DNA from: a virus
IMG/VR virus record: IMGVR_UViG_3300042517_000935
Direction: 5' to 3' (one strand)
Length of the DNA stretch: 16,302 bases
The translations under genes were made by a program, and so were the position numbers. This document shows positions 5,722 through 15,170 of the stretch, piece by piece. The notes below the pieces were generated by a model. It was not told where the DNA came from, searched no databases, and saw only the letters and a list, made by a program, of their open reading frames with translations. Within the stretch, counting starts at the first letter, position 1. Each line of letters begins with the position of its first letter.

Positions 5722-5846
5722 TGGTAGGCCCCCTCCGGTTCGAACGGAGATATGCTCGCTTATAGTTTGGGGATTGAGGAGTTGAACCTCATTGTGTAAC
5801 CTACATCCCCCGAGGCGAGTTCATTCACCAATTATGATAGAGGCCC
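5722..5846 (-). tRNA. tRNA-Pro (anticodon CGG, tentative) with CCA encoded, interrupted by a ~48-nt insertion at or next to the anticodon loop.
   Basis: Minus strand reads GGGCCUC-UA-UCAU-AAUUGGUGA-AUGA-A-CUCGC-CUCGGG[48 nt]A-GCGAG-CAUAU-CUCCG-UUCGAAC-CGGAG-GGGGCCU-A-CCA. The acceptor stem has two G.U pairs. D, anticodon and T stems are perfect. Total 125 nt = 77 + 48. Confidence 0.55.
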
Positions 5847-5899
5847 TTACCAACTGTTCATATATTATGTGCTAGATATGGGTTTGTCAACACATAATA

Positions 5900-5907
5900 T
5901 ATAAATA
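5900..5907 (+). promoter_or_regulatory. T4-type late promoter motif TATAAATA upstream of HNH endonuclease copy 1.
   Basis: Exact TATAAATA, preceded by GTCAAC at 5885-5890 and 88 nt upstream of the ATG at 5995. The same GTCAAC...TATAAATA arrangement occurs at 13333-13347 and 15211-15225. Confidence 0.45.
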
Positions 5908-5940
5908 AAGATGGTAATCCTGTTGCTACGAACAACAGGA

Positions 5941-5978
5941 AACCCGGCTTGGAGCCCCAGGCTGTCCCACACATATAT
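5941..5978 (+). promoter_or_regulatory. Conserved structured 5'UTR element (hairpin plus UCCCACAC box), copy 1.
   Basis: aacccggcttggagccccaggctgtcccacacatatat forms hairpin CGGCUUGG-AGCC-CCAGGCUG. Its paralog at 13381-13418 forms CGGCUCGGA-GUGC-UCCGGGCUG, with a compensatory U-A to C-G change. Confidence 0.45.
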
Positions 5979-5994
5979 TTACTTGGAGATTCCT

Positions 5995-6483
5995 ATGTTT
6001 ATCAATAACAAATATACCTCTTGGTATATCTCATTGGTTAGTAATGCTCAAACTAGAAATTTAGATAGATCTGTCTATACTGAAAAACATCATATTATTC
6101 CCAAGAGCCTAGGGGGCAATGATGCAAAAGATAATCTTGTTAGACTTACTGGCAAAGAACATTTTGTAGCACATTTATTACTTACCAAAATGACCTTTGG
6201 GGTCAATGCAAGAAAAATGGCCTTTGCCTTGTGGCGGATGACACAAGATAATAAGAAACGAGACAGGTTCCGAATGTCTTCTCGGCAATATCAAAATATC
6301 AAAACTGGCATGAGCGAGGCAATGAAGGTACATAACAAAGGCAAGAAACTTTCTCCAGAGCATATTCAGAAAGTAAAAGAGGGAATAGCAGCAAAAGGCG
6401 GGGCACATAATAAAGGCAAATCTATGAGCGAGGATCAGAAACACACGCGCCTTTTGGCTAGGGGTGATTGGGAATGTTCATAA
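5995..6483 (+). CDS. HNH homing endonuclease with NUMOD3 motifs, catalytic N-terminal part. Reading frame ends at an in-frame TAA.
   Basis: EKHHIIPKSLGGNDAKDNLVRLTGKEHFVAHLLL is an HNH motif. HNKGKKLSPEH and HNKGKSMSED are NUMOD3-like. It is paralogous to 13437..14183 (both start MF.NNKY..WYI.L...AQ.R). SD GGAG lies 8 nt upstream of the ATG. Confidence 0.75.
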   Translation: MFINNKYTSWYISLVSNAQTRNLDRSVYTEKHHIIPKSLGGNDAKDNLVRLTGKEHFVAHLLLTKMTFGVNARKMAFALWRMTQDNKKRDRFRMSSRQYQNIKTGMSEAMKVHNKGKKLSPEHIQKVKEGIAAKGGAHNKGKSMSEDQKHTRLLARGDWECS

Positions 6484-6732
6484 GAAACTCGCCAAAAAAT
6501 ATCTCAAGGGGTTAAGAGAAGAGCCGCAGATAGATCTAAACCCTATCAGAAAGGCATTCCTAGATCTCGTATGACATTTGTGTTACAGAATTCAATTACT
6601 CAAGAGCAGGTGGAAACCTGTAATTTGAGACAGTGGTGTGTATCCCAAGGATTCTCTAGTGGCATGATTTATCTGAATAAATCTCCCTGGAAGATAATAT
6701 CCAAGGTACCCTTACATAAGGGACAATTGTAA
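6484..6732 (+). pseudogene. C-terminal (DNA-binding) portion of HNH endonuclease copy 1, cut off by an in-frame TAA at 6481-6483.
   Basis: Same frame, directly after the stop: ETRQKISQGVKRRAADRSKPYQKGIPRSRMTFVLQNSITQEQVETCNLRQWCVSQGFSSGMIYLNKSPWKIISK. It aligns with the C-terminus of copy 2 (IETRRSK...FHTILYNTKTHEQLETT...SGNSGWIIKEKW). The TAA sits where copy 2 has Ile. Confidence 0.6.
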
Positions 6733-6750
6733 TCAAATAGAGAAAGAAAA

Positions 6751-6776
6751 GGCCGGAGAAGTTTCCTTCTCCGGCC
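6751..6776 (-). terminator. Rho-independent terminator of the minus-strand MVP transcription unit.
   Basis: Perfect 11-bp stem ggccggagaag / cttctccggcc with loop tttc, 28 nt past the MVP stop. The minus strand reads ...GGCC followed by UUUUCUUUCUCU. Confidence 0.65.
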
Positions 6777-6803
6777 ATTCCCAAGTAGTATTGGATCTGC
6801 TTG

Positions 6804-13436: not shown

Positions 13437-14183
13437 ATGTTCGTCAACAACAAATACCTCACATGGTATATCAATCTGATTGCCCATGCTCAATCACGTA
13501 TAATCCAAGGTGATGTTTATAGAGAGAAACATCATATCATTCCCAAGTCCCTTGGTGGTAATAATGAGCCAGACAATATTGTTGTTCTAACTGGAAGAGA
13601 ACATTTTTTGGTGCATAAACTGCTGACTAAATTTACAACCGGCTCTTATCAGCACAAGATGACTCATGCTCTATGGAGAATGATCGGCCCAAAAGACCAG
13701 AGAGATAGATATCGAGTTTCGGCTGGTGAATATGAGAAAATCAAATCAGAGAATATCAAGGCTTTGAGCGAGTCACACAAAGGAAAGATCTCTCCGGCCC
13801 AAATAGCCGCCAACACTCGCAGAAGGGGGCAACCCGCGCATAATAAAGGTAAGCCTAGGTCTAGGTCATCTATAGAACAAATGATTGAGACCAGAAGGAG
13901 CAAAAATGCAGGCAAACCTATTGGTGCCAAAATGAATCTTACTGAAGAACAGCGAGCAAAACGTAGAGAAACCTTGGCCAAACACAGCCCAACTGCAGGT
14001 GAAGAGAGACCCAAATTTCACACAATCTTATACAATACAAAAACTCATGAGCAATTAGAGACTACTCATATGAAGAAAACTTTGGCCTCTCTCGGAGTTA
14101 ATGGCAGACAGTTTTACTCAGGTAATAGTGGTTGGATAATTAAAGAAAAATGGTCTATCAAAACACACAAACGTATTATCTGA
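13437..14183 (+). CDS. HNH homing endonuclease with NUMOD3 motifs, intact paralog (248 aa).
   Basis: REKHHIIPKSLGGNNEPDNIVVLTGREHFLVHKLL is an HNH motif. SHKGKISP and AHNKGKPRS are NUMOD3-like. C-terminal DNA-binding region present. SD AGGAG upstream. Confidence 0.85.
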   Translation: MFVNNKYLTWYINLIAHAQSRIIQGDVYREKHHIIPKSLGGNNEPDNIVVLTGREHFLVHKLLTKFTTGSYQHKMTHALWRMIGPKDQRDRYRVSAGEYEKIKSENIKALSESHKGKISPAQIAANTRRRGQPAHNKGKPRSRSSIEQMIETRRSKNAGKPIGAKMNLTEEQRAKRRETLAKHSPTAGEERPKFHTILYNTKTHEQLETTHMKKTLASLGVNGRQFYSGNSGWIIKEKWSIKTHKRII

Positions 14184-14187
14184 ATAA

Positions 14188-14391
14188 ATCAGCGGGGCAG
14201 ATTTCGTTTTTGTCAGTAGTAAATTGATTATTGAGTTGGATGGCACCCATCACAGAACCAGAGCTGACCTTGATGCTGTTAGGGACTCTCATCTCTCTTC
14301 AAAGAGAGGATATACAGTATTGAGAATAAGTCATGCTGAATATAAGAAAGGCACCAGGATTGCGGAAATCAAGAATTTGTTGGGTATATGA
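14188..14391 (+). pseudogene. Remnant of a DUF559/Vsr-like (PD-(D/E)xK) endonuclease domain. C-terminal ~65 aa only, no start codon, +1 frame relative to the HNH gene and immediately after it.
   Basis: Hand translation ISGADFVFVSSKLIIELDGTHHRTRADLDAVRDSHLSSKRGYTVLRISHAEYKKGTRIAEIKNLLGI* matches the DUF559 core yivDF...rlviEvDG.qH.....D..RD..L...GyrVlRf...ev. A TAA at 14185-14187 precedes it in frame. Confidence 0.55.
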
Positions 14392-14397
14392 AGAGAG

Positions 14398-14428
14398 AAG
14401 CCTGGGATGATTGGATCATCCCAGGCTT
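14398..14428. terminator. Strong hairpin, probably a bidirectional terminator. It follows the plus-strand endonuclease genes and the minus-strand tRNA-Gly 3' end.
   Basis: Perfect 13-bp stem aagcctgggatga / tcatcccaggctt with loop ttgga. On the minus strand it is followed by a CU-rich run. Confidence 0.5.
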
Positions 14429-14436
14429 GAAATAAT

Positions 14437-14512
14437 TGGAGCGGGTAGCCGGTAGCGCGCCGGTCTACTAGAATTTGGAAGACTCTCATGTATCTGTAAA
14501 CACTTTACCCGC
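14437..14512 (-). tRNA. tRNA-Gly (anticodon UCC), CCA encoded, with atypical D- and T-loops.
   Basis: Minus strand reads GCGGGUA-AA-GUGU-UUACAGAU-ACAU-G-AGAGU-CUUCCAA-AUUCU-AGUAG-ACCGG-CGCGCUA-CCGGC-UACCCGC-U-CCA. All four arms pair in canonical 7/4/5/5 geometry over 76 nt. The D-loop lacks G18G19 and the T-loop is CGCGCUA, not UUCRANY. Both partners of the D/T tertiary contact are missing together. Confidence 0.55.
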
Positions 14513-14564
14513 CTAATGTTACCATTCAACTATACAAACATCTGGGTATTTTGTCAACCACAGA

Positions 14565-14909
14565 CTAGGAGAAAAAAGTAATAAACACTTGTTCATCAAC
14601 TAGATTGCGGCTTTCTCCCCACCAGATCTTACAATCTGGCCACATCAATGCCAAGGTTGTTACAACATCCCTGTCACGCACATAAAATTCATAATCTTCC
14701 ACACTCCTGCCAGGAACTATAACAGAACTGCTGGAGCCACCTAGGCTGATTGTGCCTGTATTGCTGTCTAGCACATCCCACACCCATCTATCGCCGTAAA
14801 TTACTCCTTGTGGATCCTCATCACTGTTCAAATAGTCAAGAACAGCATGTCGAGTATTGCCTATGTCAGGGTAAGGAAAACTCAGGATCACTTTGTGCCA
14901 ACACCGCAT
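14565..14909 (-). CDS. Hypothetical protein (114 aa). Start uncertain.
   Basis: The listed 207-aa ORF runs through tRNA-Leu (15031-15170), so its 5' part is spurious. The first ATG downstream of the tRNA gives MRCWHKVILSFPYPDIG... No SD. No family recognised. Confidence 0.35.
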   Translation of the reverse strand: MRCWHKVILSFPYPDIGNTRHAVLDYLNSDEDPQGVIYGDRWVWDVLDSNTGTISLGGSSSSVIVPGRSVEDYEFYVRDRDVVTTLALMWPDCKIWWGESRNLVDEQVFITFFS

Positions 14910-15030
14910 TTCAGCATAGTTATCACAAGTTTGGATATCAAATGCACAGTTACTCCTTGGCCGGACGGTTATGTTTTCTGCAATTCCTTCTAGGTCTTTT
15001 CGCACTGCATTTCTTCTATTACTAGTTGAT

Positions 15031-15170
15031 TGGTGCCCCCGGCCCGATTTGAACGGGCACAGCCTTTCCAGGCCAGCGGATTTCTGTTGGACTATCAGGA
15101 TTGAACTGATATGAGCACCTGTTGCTCTTGTCCCTAAGTCCGCGTCGTCTACCGATTCCGACACGGGGGC
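15031..15170 (-). tRNA. tRNA-Leu (class II; anticodon UAG if the insert is at 37/38, UAA if at 35/36) with CCA encoded, interrupted by a ~51-nt insertion in the anticodon loop.
   Basis: Minus strand reads GCCCCCG-UG-UCG-GAAUCGGUAGA-CGA-C-GCGGA-CUUAGG[51 nt]A-UCCGC-UGGCCUGGAAAGGCUGU-GCCCG-UUCAAAU-CGGGC-CGGGGGC-A-CCA. Perfect acceptor, anticodon and T stems. Architecture parallels the intron-less tRNA-Leu(CAA) at 16072-16154. Total 140 nt = 89 + 51. Confidence 0.7.

Follow-up and report, generated by a model that had tools for sequence, protein, structure and literature searches.

Mini-tRNAs inside the anticodon loops of phage tRNA genes: candidate tRNA-mimicking introns beside homing endonuclease genes

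Several described systems come close to a short insert in a tRNA anticodon loop. Group I introns occur in such loops, including that of tRNA-Leu(UAA) in cyanobacteria, and are linked to homing endonucleases; some are mobile, and they are phenotypically neutral if removed. The bulge-helix-bulge (BHB) introns of archaeal and eukaryal tRNAs (EndA/Sen) are short, protein-dependent and located in or near the anticodon loop, and their exons are joined by RNA ligase. Mimics of the acceptor and T arm can also be embedded in longer transcripts as signals for RNase P and RNase Z, the ends of the mimic setting the cleavage points; MALAT1 mascRNA, plant mitochondrial t-elements, mitochondrial tRNA punctuation and synthetic minihelices are examples. 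Acceptor/T minihelices bearing NCCA serve as model substrates for RNase P and are also accepted by RNase Z and the CCA-adding enzyme, while T4 Rnl1 closes 3'-OH/5'-phosphate nicks in tRNA anticodon loops. Attached RNA modules direct phage tRNA processing in the case of the theta (HDV-like) ribozymes found by phage suppressor tRNAs (PMC10879173). In collaborative homing (the cyanophage S-PM2 psbA intron with F-CphI, and T4 mobE with I-TevIII), an intron too small for an endonuclease of its own adjoins a free-standing HNH or GIY-YIG gene, and its presence is polymorphic between close genomes; cases of free-standing endonucleases directed at intron insertion sites have been documented (PMC6083498, PMC2790892, PMC3984707).

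In this report, we analyze a window, that is, the full 16,302-nt stretch of IMG/VR record IMGVR_UViG_3300042517_000935, to which all coordinates refer (Table 1). Our main finding is that two of its tRNA genes carry, in the anticodon loop, an insert built as a mini-tRNA, in which an acceptor-like helix and a canonical T arm form one coaxial stack of about 12 layers, the length found in tRNA, and a single-stranded 3' tail of 4 nt follows. We give roughly even odds (probability about 0.5) to the reading that these inserts are mobile tRNA-mimicking introns, excised at their tRNA-like ends by tRNA end-processing enzymes, with religation of the exons. They may represent a kind of tRNA intron not described so far; our search of Rfam and of the searchable literature found no family or paper describing tRNA-shaped introns of this kind.

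Table 1. Features of the two interrupted tRNA genes and their surroundings in the window
Feature	Position	Strand	Remarks
Interrupted tRNA gene, read as tRNA(CAU), Met or Ile2	5722..5846	-	125 nt; CCA encoded; acceptor GGGCCUC/GGGGCCU; ARAGORN intron mode, sequence, fold
Proposed 5' exon, tRNA(CAU) gene	5812..5846	-	Last loop bases C32 U33 C34 (CUC); dissection rule common to 13 inserts
48-nt mini-tRNA insert, proposed intron, tRNA(CAU) gene	5764..5811	-	
T-arm-like hairpin UGAGG-UUCAACU-CCUCA	5775..5791	-	5-bp stem, 7-nt UUCAANN loop; TGAGGTTCAACTCCTCA, single occurrence in window
Proposed 3' exon, tRNA(CAU) gene	5722..5763	-	First bases AUAA, from anticodon loop
Sigma-70-like promoter TTGACA-17-TAATAT	5862..5890	-	About 16 nt upstream of tRNA(CAU) position 1; 10/12 consensus matches
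Free-standing HNH homing endonuclease gene	5995..6483	+	Divergent from interrupted tRNA(CAU); PHROG 655 E=1e-42, Pfam HNH
TilS-like PP-loop ATPase	9334..9936	-	PF01171, Pfam match on identical gene in L084
Interrupted tRNA-Leu(UAA) gene	15031..15170	-	140 nt; long variable arm; CCA encoded
51-nt mini-tRNA insert, proposed intron, tRNA-Leu(UAA)	15084..15134	-	Exon loop halves CUUA + AAA
T-arm-like hairpin UAUCAG-UUCAAUC-CUGAUA	15093..15111	-	TATCAGTTCAATCCTGATA, single occurrence in window
Sigma-70-like promoter TTGACT-17-TACTAT	15187..15215	-	Upstream of interrupted tRNA-Leu(UAA)
Free-standing endonuclease gene, HNH-related	15283..15957	+	Divergent from interrupted tRNA-Leu(UAA); PHROGs 1271, 945, 15137
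Uninterrupted tRNA-Leu(CAA)	16072..16154	-	Loop CUCAAAA

Both host genes are promoter-driven, CCA-encoding phage tRNA genes that ARAGORN detects in intron mode only (c[5722,5846], 48-nt insert; c[15031,15170], 51-nt insert). The T-arm-like hairpin that the original prediction had seen in each insert was located in both. From 5' to 3', the tRNA(CAU) insert comprises GGGGGAU (acceptor 5' strand, first layer G.A), the GG linker GUAGGUUACACAA, the T arm, AUCCCCA (acceptor 3' strand) and the tail AACU. The tRNA-Leu(UAA) insert comprises GGGAC (helix 5' strand, first layer G.A), AA, the hairpin GAGCA-ACAGG-UGCUC, A, the T arm, GUCCA (helix 3' strand) and the tail ACAG; neither tail is NCCA. In place of the D and anticodon arms, the first insert and its homologues have a short GG-containing linker, and the second a small hairpin with a GG-containing loop. 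The GGGGAU/AUCCCC helix, in which the first hairpin had been said to be nested, is real: its 3' strand is contiguous with the T-like stem, and GGAC/GUCC is its counterpart in the other insert. The resemblance to an acceptor-T minihelix claimed on this basis fits the alignment of the Rfam tRNA model with the isolated insert (5768-5810, 16.4 bits), which covers the acceptor and T arm and treats the D and anticodon arms as deletions. The two inserts had been described as otherwise dissimilar; instead, one architecture is common to both. The whole tRNA-Leu(UAA) precursor has a fold z-score of -4.0. Across inserts the acceptor/T stack has 11 to 13 layers, most commonly 12, with 11 in tRNA-Leu(UAA) and 13 in the IMG/VR contigs L261 and L281.

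Further copies, and conservation of the hairpin in relatives, were the findings whose absence would have told against the original prediction, and both were obtained. Related jumbo-phage contigs, IMG/VR and metagenome contigs yielded 14 comparable inserts of 44 to 62 nt. The tRNA(CAU) insert has homologues in L209, a related jumbo phage with a 71% identical homospermidine synthase, and in the IMG/VR contigs L261, L281 and L452; among these, both helices show compensatory changes while the AGGUU linker and the T-loop are conserved. In L209, for example, GGGGAU/AUCCCC becomes AGGGUCA/UGACCCU and GAGG/CCUC becomes UGGG/CCCA. The insert helices were aligned by hand on the proposed structure, with G52, G53, C61 and C62 set by the search pattern. 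Paired cells make up 94.8% of this alignment, and both sides change in 10 of the 12 pairs; none of 500 shuffles scored as high, and slid controls reached at most 57%. A scan for two T-loops 28 to 58 nt apart followed by CCA, in which nesting was not demanded, gave 122 matches, 10 of them tRNAs with the first T-loop inside an anticodon-loop insert. Three cases go further, with a full or near-full tRNA nested in the anticodon loop of another: a tRNA-Asn with GCCA in a tRNA-Lys (L311, insertion point 36/37), a tRNA-Phe with ACCC in a tRNA-Arg (L221), and a 71-nt tRNA-like element with a GCCA end in a tRNA-Ile(UAU) (L397). Together with the four homologues, these nestings give good support to the earlier idea that the inserts are related, tRNA-derived miniature elements. 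A true T-loop is not obligatory, being absent from the L088 insert and replaced by a 5-nt loop in an insert of sister strains described below. Free-standing minihelix genes with NCCA lie directly after tRNAs in other phages, and lake metagenomes contain a large family of tRNA-scaffolded variable RNAs.

That two unrelated inserts merely happen to hold GTTCAA-type hairpins could be argued from the presence of just two copies in the window and from the little primary-sequence identity between them. The window, however, has nine GTTCRANYC matches against 1.5 expected, a number reached by 0 of 200 shuffles, and exactly seven minus-strand hairpins that combine a 7-nt loop of T-loop type with a stem of 4 bp or more, namely the T arms of five tRNA or tRNA-like genes and the two insert hairpins. 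Since the inserts are conserved, with compensatory changes, in L209, L261, L281 and L452 and recur in unrelated contigs, chance resemblance is already refuted by the comparative data and has almost no probability left.

The boundaries of the unit follow a simple rule. Deleting the insert from the start of its helix to 4 nt beyond the helix end yields a perfect 7-nt loop in 13 of 14 inserts and in the three full nestings, provided that a first layer with a G.A or G.G mismatch (window lineage, L209, L281) is counted, post hoc, to reach the 4-nt tail; the exception, L452, has a tail of 5 nt. Every loop restored by dissection of the 13 inserts has Y32, U33, R37 and A38. The insertion point of the mini inserts varies from 32/33 to 35/36, and the 3' strand, from T-loop to helix end, measures 12 nt in 9 of 12 cases. 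A literal NCCA tail is present in five inserts (L088, L222, L227, L254, L292) and in two full nestings. The rule proves a sharply bounded unit and not splicing, because any clean DNA insertion into a 7-nt loop leaves halves that sum to 7.

Application of the rule changes the identity of the first host tRNA. The earlier label and the intron-mode call of ARAGORN were Pro(CGG); once 5764-5811 is removed, ARAGORN run without intron mode reports a tRNA(cat) of 77 nt that forms a clean cloverleaf. The loop halves are CUC+AUAA in L209 and L261 and CUCA+UAA in L281, giving the loop CUCAUAA in all three. Under the rule, the window gene, L209, L261 and L281 all become tRNA(CAU), while the splice guesses of ARAGORN itself were Pro, Ser, Arg and Met. 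Judged from these sequences, the gene is probably a tRNA(CAU), Met or Ile2, and its assignment to proline was probably wrong. The TilS-like gene, 59% identical to its neighbour in L209, is context for the tRNA-Ile2(CAU) reading, to which it may be functionally linked. A search for uninterrupted alleles of the CAU genes with the same exons found none. ARAGORN without intron mode recognizes the spliced sequences in general as normal tRNAs; for tRNA-Leu(UAA) the call is an 89-nt tRNA-Leu(taa).

The majority of interrupted tRNA genes adjoin free-standing homing endonuclease genes, an association that the original prediction had not remarked on. Homologues of the window HNH gene, 59% identical in L209 and 45% in L261, lie directly beside the homologous interrupted tRNA, so that orthologous HNH genes flank orthologous interrupted tRNAs in three phages; the second endonuclease has weak relatives in L143, L215 and L261. 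At the Leu(CAA) locus, interrupted and uninterrupted alleles occur among near-identical contigs: the window allele is uninterrupted, and sister contigs L083-L085 have a divergent allele whose 51-nt insert shares this architecture and has, in its second hairpin, the 5-nt loop UCACU in place of a T-loop. This third insert had been overlooked. An insert disrupting the conserved anticodon-loop sequence could travel with the adjoining endonuclease gene, the insert-bearing allele being immune and uninterrupted alleles being cut and converted, as in collaborative homing.

The same observations fit a cassette of selfish DNA that is never removed from RNA, arising as a by-product of endonuclease-induced repair or destroying the endonuclease target, and leaving the interrupted tRNAs dead or dispensable. 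Loop halves would sum to 7 after any clean insertion, endonuclease genes adjoin most cases, phage tRNAs are often dispensable, and the window keeps an uninterrupted Leu(CAA) where sister strains have an interrupted one; in the DNA at hand, a small fraction of these genomes, we saw no gene for an RNA ligase, RNase Z or Pnkp, and the lack of a ligase would suit such a cassette. Against it, the outer stems are all perfectly paired, promoters are intact and CCA is kept, an integrity that holds even among divergent homologues (window, L209, L261, L281, L452). Moreover, the unit ends coincide with mature tRNA ends (position +1, and N73 plus 3), which are defined by RNA processing alone, and the inner helices covary, indicating selection on RNA structure and not on DNA sequence. 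We consider a purely DNA-level element unlikely.

A common processing enzyme, one of the options raised by the original prediction, seems the best mechanistic reading on three geometric grounds, namely the roughly 12-layer stack, the 4-nt tail, frequently NCCA, and the precise return to a 7-nt loop. Once its host gene has been transcribed from its own sigma-70-type promoter, the insert would be recognized as a tRNA. RNase P would cleave directly 5' to the inner acceptor helix (between 5812 and 5811, and between 15135 and 15134), and a tRNA 3'-end endonuclease after the 4-nt tail. The freed mini-tRNA (48 or 51 nt) would leave an outer tRNA nicked in the anticodon loop, with 3'-OH and 5'-phosphate ends, on which an Rnl-type RNA ligase could restore the loops CUCAUAA (5722-5846) and CUUAAAA (15031-15170); the exon junctions expected in spliced RNA are CUCGCCUC|AUAAGCGAG and GCGGACUUA|AAAUCCGC. 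On a CCA-less substrate RNase Z normally cuts directly after the discriminator; with the CCA-less tails of the window this would leave 3 extra bases, which counts against the mechanism. A precedent for the 3' cut is the tRNase Z of T. maritima, described as cleaving precisely after A76 (PMC1540738).

True introns might instead be removed by a dedicated phage endonuclease or by self-cleavage, the tRNA-like shape serving folding or the binding of a chaperone or modification enzyme (for example, TruB or TrmA). The non-CCA tails, the 5-nt tail of L452 and the T-loop-less inserts of L088 and L084 Leu(CAA) do fit a tRNA-end ruler poorly, and many neighbouring ORFs are of unknown function. No bulge-helix-bulge, however, can be drawn in the interrupted precursors, and the isolated insert regions match no Rfam ribozyme or intron family even at E<=10. 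The splice points track the ends of the inner helix and not the outer tRNA body, the shifting insertion point (36/37 in L311) speaks against a ruler tied to the mature domain, and both the tails that are literally NCCA and the nesting of full tRNAs suggest ordinary tRNA end-processing. We find this route rather improbable.

The composite RNA could also be the functional product, with the outer tRNA as a stable scaffold presenting a second tRNA elbow and acceptor, and would then act as a decoy, an option also raised by the original prediction, or as a sponge, in either case for a nuclease of the host that targets tRNA or for a defence protein that binds it; alternatively, it would supply tRNA halves. 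The insert lies exactly at the cut site of anticodon nucleases, and the free-standing minihelix genes and the lake-metagenome family agree with such a role. Left unexplained are why the loop halves always form a canonical loop with a sensible anticodon, why homologous genes keep a CAU anticodon under one rule, and why alleles with and without an insert alternate at the Leu(CAA) locus; we hold this to be a distinctly improbable account.

How do tRNA-mimicking introns of the proposed kind compare with the known systems? Known group I introns measure some 200 nt or more, with a P1-P9 ribozyme core and an omega-G end, whereas the inserts here are of 44-62 nt with a mini-tRNA fold, lack a terminal G in the 5722-5846 gene and do not match the group I intron model RF00028. 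BHB introns have their canonical position at 37/38, compared with 32/33 to 36/37 here; the motif of 3-nt bulge, 4-bp helix and 3-nt bulge cannot form in our inserts, and the context is bacterial (sigma-70 promoters, bacteriophage genes). Known tRNA-like processing signals punctuate or terminate transcripts, and we know of none inside the anticodon loop of another tRNA that needs religation of its flanks. Theta ribozymes, which cleave themselves, are external to the tRNA, while the module described here is internal, tRNA-shaped and devoid of a ribozyme signature. Lastly, the introns known to undergo collaborative homing are self-splicing group I ribozymes in protein-coding genes; here, a tRNA mimic resides in a tRNA gene, beside endonucleases with putative targets.

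With default settings, ARAGORN and Rfam recognize only two tRNA genes in the window, tRNA-Gln(UUG) and tRNA-Leu(CAA). Two further genes, each interrupted in the anticodon loop, are recovered by ARAGORN in intron mode (see the table), and every tRNA-type gene of the window is on the minus strand. Both interrupted genes encode CCA and pair perfectly in the acceptor, D, anticodon and T stems, and each gene possesses a sigma-70-like promoter of its own. Our main reading is that the inserts are mobile, tRNA-mimicking introns, for which excision and the enzymes involved are predicted; we give it a probability of roughly one half.

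Coordinates of tRNA genes, inserts and neighboring genes in the window and in related contigs (L-numbers)
Feature	Sequence	Coordinates	Strand	Details
First interrupted tRNA	window	5722-5846	-	48-nt insert; ARAGORN intron mode
First insert	window	5811-5764	-	G+GGGGAU (acceptor-like helix, 5' strand); GUAGGUUACACAA (linker with GG); UGAGG-UUCAACU-CCUCA (T arm); AUCCCC+A (helix 3' strand, contiguous with T stem); AACU (tail)
Interrupted tRNA-Leu(UAA)	window	15031-15170	-	51-nt insert; ARAGORN intron mode
Leu(UAA) insert	window	15134-15084	-	G+GGAC; AA; hairpin GAGCA-ACAGG-UGCUC; A; UAUCAG-UUCAAUC-CUGAUA; GUCC+A; tail ACAG
tRNA-Gln(UUG)	window	15985-16059	-	default ARAGORN and Rfam
tRNA-Leu(CAA), uninterrupted	window	16072-16154	-	loop CUCAAAA; default ARAGORN and Rfam
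Interrupted Leu(CAA) allele	L083; L084; L085	2795-2932; 1044-1181; 862-999		insert GAGGC, hairpin, UUGGG-UCACU-CCCAA, UA, GCCUA, then AACA
Interrupted tRNA	L209	13741-13871		promoter-driven; 46-nt insert homologous to first insert: GAGGGUCA AAGGUUUGUAA UGGG-UUCGAAU-CCCA UGACCCUG CAAA
Interrupted tRNA(CAU)	L452	1356-1482		homologue of first insert
tRNA-Asn(GUU) with GCCA	L311 (IMG/VR)	1706-1779	-	inside tRNA-Lys(UUU)
tRNA-Phe(GAA) with ACCC	L221 (IMG/VR)	5006-5082		inside tRNA-Arg(UCU)
71-nt tRNA-like element ending GCCA	L397	around 745		inside tRNA-Ile(UAU)
HNH homing endonuclease	window	5995-6483	+	PHROG 655, E=1e-42; divergent from first interrupted tRNA
Endonuclease	window	15283-15957	+	divergent from interrupted tRNA-Leu
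HNH	L227			PHROG 2255; 128 nt from interrupted tRNA
HNH	L254			PHROG 2255; about 1 kb from interrupted tRNA
HNH	L215			PHROG 10822; 163 nt from interrupted tRNA
GIY-YIG	L222			313 nt from interrupted tRNA
HNH-related	L452			about 0.7 kb from interrupted tRNA
'RNA-binding protein', 473 aa	L281	3846-5267	+	PHROG 850; DUF2828, DUF7788
Cow-rumen-3 RNA	L088	715-856	-	RF03083, 121 bits
Tail-spike-like gene	window	30-2363	+
PTH2-type peptidyl-tRNA hydrolase	window	3797-4264	+
Major-vault-protein-like gene	window	6804-9374	-	MVP shoulder and Vault_3 domains
TilS-like PP-loop ATPase	window	9334-9936	-	PF01171
Homospermidine synthase	window	11172-12575	-
Odd tRNA-like gene	window	13207-13293	-	promoter-like sequence of its own
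HNH paralog	window	13437-14183	+	accompanies odd tRNA-like gene
207-aa ORF	window	14565-15188	-	gene in public assemblies

The original prediction, that each insert carries a T-arm-like hairpin, was confirmed by sequence search at the positions proposed. The motif GTTCRANYC occurs nine times in the window against 1.5 expected, and T-loop-type hairpins with a stem of at least 4 bp number seven on the minus strand: five T arms of tRNAs or tRNA-like genes, and the two insert hairpins. The likeness of the first insert to an acceptor-T minihelix also held, the Rfam tRNA model aligning this insert alone as acceptor plus T arm; on 5768-5810 alone it scores 16.4 bits with the D and anticodon arms deleted. 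As the RF00005 gathering cut-off is 29 bits, a genuine four-arm tRNA was rejected for this inner element. The outer cloverleaf, the inner helix and the hairpins all appear in minimum-free-energy folds, with a z-score of -4.0 for the Leu precursor. The inner stack has 12 layers in the first insert, 11 in the Leu(UAA) insert and 12 in nine of 12 family members; the first layer, mismatched (G.A or G.G) in L209, L281 and the window lineage, was included in the count post hoc.

Where an insert begins and ends can be stated as one rule: removal of everything from the start of the inner helix through 4 nt past its end leaves a 7-nt anticodon loop. We dissected 13 inserts by hand, MAFFT alignments of inserts being unfaithful to structure, and all 13 yield under this rule a 7-nt loop with Y32, U33, R37 and A38, for insertion points that range from 32/33 to 35/36. 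An automated version of the rule gives junctions identical to those of the hand dissection. The sole exception to the rule is the L452 gene, with a 5-nt tail, UCCGA. On the 3' strand, the distance from T-loop to helix end, which is twelve (5 plus 7) in tRNA, is 12 nt in nine of 12 inserts, 13 in two and 11 in the Leu insert of the window. The tail is literally NCCA in L088, L222, L227, L254 and L292, as it is in the complete nestings of L311 and L397, whereas AACU and ACAG of the window share with NCCA the length and not the sequence. In bacterial RNase P, it is P15 that pairs with RCCA of a single-stranded 3' end. The spliced sequences are called ordinary tRNAs by ARAGORN without intron mode, and that the inserts stay in place as an unspliced scaffold or a decoy appears to us improbable.

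The rule also bears on the identity of the first tRNA. Junctions chosen by ARAGORN make the homologous genes of the window, L209, L261 and L281 a Pro, a Ser, an Arg and a Met tRNA; they were rejected, several of them falling inside the inner helix and four identities being spread over homologous genes. Under the rule, CUC+AUAA (window, L209, L261) and CUCA+UAA (L281) all give the loop CUCAUAA with anticodon CAU, and L452 likewise gives CUC+AUAA provided that its 5-nt tail is removed. From sequence, a tRNA(CAU), with a single identity across the homologous genes, is thus the more parsimonious assignment. The first tRNA contains both C4-G69 and C5-G68, TilS determinants of tRNA-Ile2 in E. coli, and the window encodes a TilS-like ATPase; together these offer a lead towards tRNA-Ile2. 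Default ARAGORN overlooks both interrupted genes of the window and its intron mode mis-assigns the homologous CAU tRNAs, so that phage tRNA repertoires, and the codon-usage inferences drawn from them, are affected wherever tRNA finders omit or mis-assign such genes.

Near-identical contigs L083-L087, retrieved with the homospermidine synthase of the window, carry both interrupted genes with 100% identity and therefore give no covariation information. They differ at a third locus: where the window has its uninterrupted Leu(CAA) gene, L083-L085 have a divergent Leu(CAA) allele containing a 51-nt insert that is built like those of the window, and the flanks of this cassette are identical up to the gene ends. 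The loop reads CUCAAAA in the window and CUCA...AAA in the interrupted allele. The Leu(CAA) locus is thus a presence/absence polymorphism, swapped as a cassette among near-identical phage contigs. Its insert has a UCACU loop, and a perfect 7-nt T-loop is hence not obligatory. For the CAU and Leu(UAA) genes no pair of intron-plus and intron-minus alleles was found in close relatives, and a pattern search for uninterrupted alleles carrying the exons of L281 or L261 gave 0 matches. More distant synthase homologues led to the jumbo-phage scaffolds L209 and L210 (synthase 71% identical), of a lineage whose scaffolds measure 168-462 kb. The L209 insert, homologous to the first insert of the window, differs from it by compensatory changes in both helices, while the AGGUU linker and the T-loop are conserved; conservation of the hairpin in an orthologous insert, on which the original prediction had staked itself, is thereby observed.

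To assess covariation, equal-length constructs of eight members were assembled (acceptor 7, T stem 5, loop 7, T stem 5, acceptor 7, tail 4). Paired cells amount to 94.8%, where shuffles give 66% and a slid partner no more than 57%; both sides change in 10 of 12 pairs, and none of 500 shuffles reached the covariation score. Since the constructs are built on the proposed structure, and the search pattern dictated the two loop-proximal G-C pairs of the IMG/VR members, these numbers are supportive and not independent proof. Chance resemblance to tRNA is, in our estimation, extremely improbable. A selfish insertion acting at the DNA level alone deserves more attention, as a clean insertion into DNA by itself leaves loop halves that sum to 7. 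What is informative is therefore not the restored loop, but the coincidence of the unit ends with mature tRNA ends and the covariation of the inner helices, both of which speak against a DNA-only element and make it unlikely.

Inserts of this kind are not confined to the relatives of the window. We scanned viral contigs for two T-loops 28 to 58 nt apart followed by N12-CCA; among at least 122 matches, at least 10 tRNAs have the first T-loop in an anticodon-loop insert (L214, L215, L222, L227, L237, L245, L254, L261, L281 and L292), and seven of these were dissected, L214, L237 and L245 being left out. L452 was added by a further pattern scan. A metagenome scan for tRNA-Leu with extra sequence contributed L088, L143 and L168 as its only anticodon-loop inserts, its other matches being mostly long variable-arm insertions or a different tRNA-scaffold family; the exact tRNA-Leu D-loop pattern had 0 matches in IMG/VR. 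About 250 nt separate a cow-rumen-3 RNA from the L088 gene, a tRNA-Leu(UAA) whose 48-nt insert has ACCA as its last bases. In L311 and L221 the inner elements are full tRNAs, unlike the first insert of the window. Deletion of the nested tRNA (+1 to N73 plus 3) leaves a normal outer tRNA in L311, L221 and L397, which in L311 is a 76-nt tRNA-Lys, but with C and not U at position 33. Among 185,579 species-representative genomes, 120 pattern matches included two nested candidates, of which only L397, a 3.4-kb MAG contig, is convincing; with this single case, the nested tRNA phenomenon looks mainly viral. Neither the whole window (megablast) nor the interrupted tRNA (blastn) had a match among 50,697 phage records, and the nested tRNA of L222 matched cultured phages over 30 nt of ordinary T arm only. 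Free-standing minihelix genes, composed of a 7-bp acceptor, a 0-24-nt linker, a T arm and NCCA, occur a few bases downstream of tRNA-CCA genes in L218, L228, L231, L265 and other IMG/VR loci; they may be processing signals, decoys, or a source of nested mini-introns.

Endonuclease genes are recurrent neighbors of the interrupted tRNAs (see the table), an association that is descriptive only. Orthologues of the HNH endonuclease next to the first interrupted tRNA, 59% identical in L209 and 45% in L261, directly adjoin the orthologous interrupted tRNAs there. No endonuclease was seen beside the full-tRNA nestings of L221 and L311, and almost none of the best 80 IMG/VR relatives of the HNH endonuclease are near tRNAs. 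In L281, the gene about 170 nt from the interrupted tRNA(CAU) encodes the 'RNA-binding protein'.

How such an element might be removed can be sketched from known activities. RNase P acts on acceptor/T minihelices with NCCA, and minihelices are also accepted by RNase Z and by the CCA-adding enzyme; the inserts have the corresponding form, an acceptor helix coaxial with a 5-bp T stem (about 12 bp) and a 7-nt T-loop, and the helix covaries. In anticodon loops, T4 Rnl1 seals 3'-OH/5'-P nicks. Cleavage exactly after A76 is described for T. maritima tRNase Z (PMC1540738), and intron insertion sites are known targets of free-standing endonucleases (PMC6083498, PMC2790892, PMC3984707). From these activities we infer a sequence of two cuts and a resealing. 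RNase P would cut at the inner +1, between 5812 and 5811 and between 15135 and 15134; a 3'-end (RNase Z-type) nuclease would cut after the tail, between 5764 and 5763 and between 15084 and 15083; and a phage Rnl-type ligase would reseal the nicked outer anticodon loop, with predicted junctions ...CUCGCCUC joined to AUAAGCGAG... and ...GCGGACUUA joined to AAAUCCGC.... The element would spread between phage genomes with free-standing homing endonucleases. The 3' cut at the non-CCA tails of the window lineage is the weakest link of this mechanism. Removal by a dedicated phage splicing enzyme instead seems to us quite unlikely. If the inserts are removed as proposed, splicing could dispense with both ribozyme and dedicated endonuclease, tRNA mimicry and a ligase being sufficient. 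Phage RNA ligases would then have a routine housekeeping substrate beyond the repair of anticodon-nuclease damage, one tRNA gene could be seen to nest within another, and homing-endonuclease logic would extend to tRNA genes whose introns are too small to encode the endonuclease.

The vault-like, homospermidine synthase, PTH2-type hydrolase and TilS-like genes are unusual phage cargo; synthase and TilS-like ATPase are syntenic in the jumbo phage L209, and IMG/VR relatives of the vault-like protein have no tRNAs nearby. In the tail-spike-like gene, about 15 tandem repeats of 51 bp (17 residues), 60-95% identical, precede an endosialidase-chaperone (Peptidase_S74) domain. The 207-aa ORF starts upstream of the interrupted tRNA-Leu and runs through the tRNA gene, and its N-terminal ~50 residues are probably an artefact. 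The odd tRNA-like gene has acceptor stem, T arm and CCA, and its hairpin CUGG-UUUCUAC-CCAG (UCU) resembles an anticodon arm. The D arm is missing from its usual position, and a D-loop-like hairpin, GCUGU-AAUUGGAGGCG-AUAGC, comes after the anticodon arm; the Rfam tRNA score of the gene, 26.3 bits, is under the cut-off. L083 and L085 have at this locus a normal tRNA-Arg(UCU) and a different endonuclease of 280 aa, and the relative L208 (synthase 85% identical) has an identical copy of the odd gene. A large tRNA-like family, mostly from lake metagenomes (L094, L097, L099 with an array of about 14, L101, L102, L109, L121, L195 and many more), shares a single acceptor stem, D arm and T arm, AGUCAGG UG GCGG AAUUGGUAG ACGC ... 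ACAGG UUCGAAU CCUGU CCUGACU AC. Its members are without CCA, have a hypervariable middle of 60-90 nt and match the Rfam tRNA model only weakly; in appearance they are tRNA scaffolds with a variable cargo.

How do the inserts compare with known systems? An open-access-weighted literature search returned nothing on introns shaped like tRNAs or on tRNAs nested within other tRNAs, and an earlier description may exist outside its range; the inserts match no Rfam family. On the isolated insert regions, no intron or ribozyme family of Rfam matched at E<=10. Group I introns have at least about 200 nt and a conserved P3-P8 core, against 48 and 51 nt here, and they end in omega-G, with a 5' exon U pairing G in P1, whereas the first insert ends in U and the last nine bases before its anticodon stem (AAACUAUAA) contain no G; tail end bases in relatives are A, U or G without pattern. 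RF00028 did not match the window at gathering score or E<=10, nor the isolated regions, while the model did recognize a real group I intron in L131. A group I intron was rejected on the absence of a match, the length and the missing omega-G end. BHB introns have two 3-nt splice-site bulges around a 4-bp helix. The inserts lack this central helix, both junctions lying in an asymmetric internal loop between anticodon stem and inner helix (3-4 nt on the 5' side, 7-8 nt on the 3' side), and neither folds nor dissection show the bulge-helix-bulge geometry, which led us to reject this class. Self-cleaving ribozymes were rejected as well: hammerhead, twister, pistol, hatchet, HDV-like and hairpin models had no match at E<=10 in the window or the two isolated regions, and manual inspection found no canonical hammerhead core. 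Tentatively, and at clearly less than even odds, the inserts might form a third class of tRNA introns beside group I and BHB, with a tRNA-like intron, RNase P/RNase Z-type cutting, Rnl-type resealing and endonuclease-linked spread. A parallel is offered by collaborative homing, in which the intron-less allele is cleaved close to the site of insertion and the intron-bearing allele left intact, as the endonucleases here would be predicted to do, in which a free-standing endonuclease sits beside an ORF-less intron, an adjacency seen for the inserts here, and in which close genomes carry intron-plus and intron-minus alleles, as the Leu(CAA) genes of L083-L085 and the window do.
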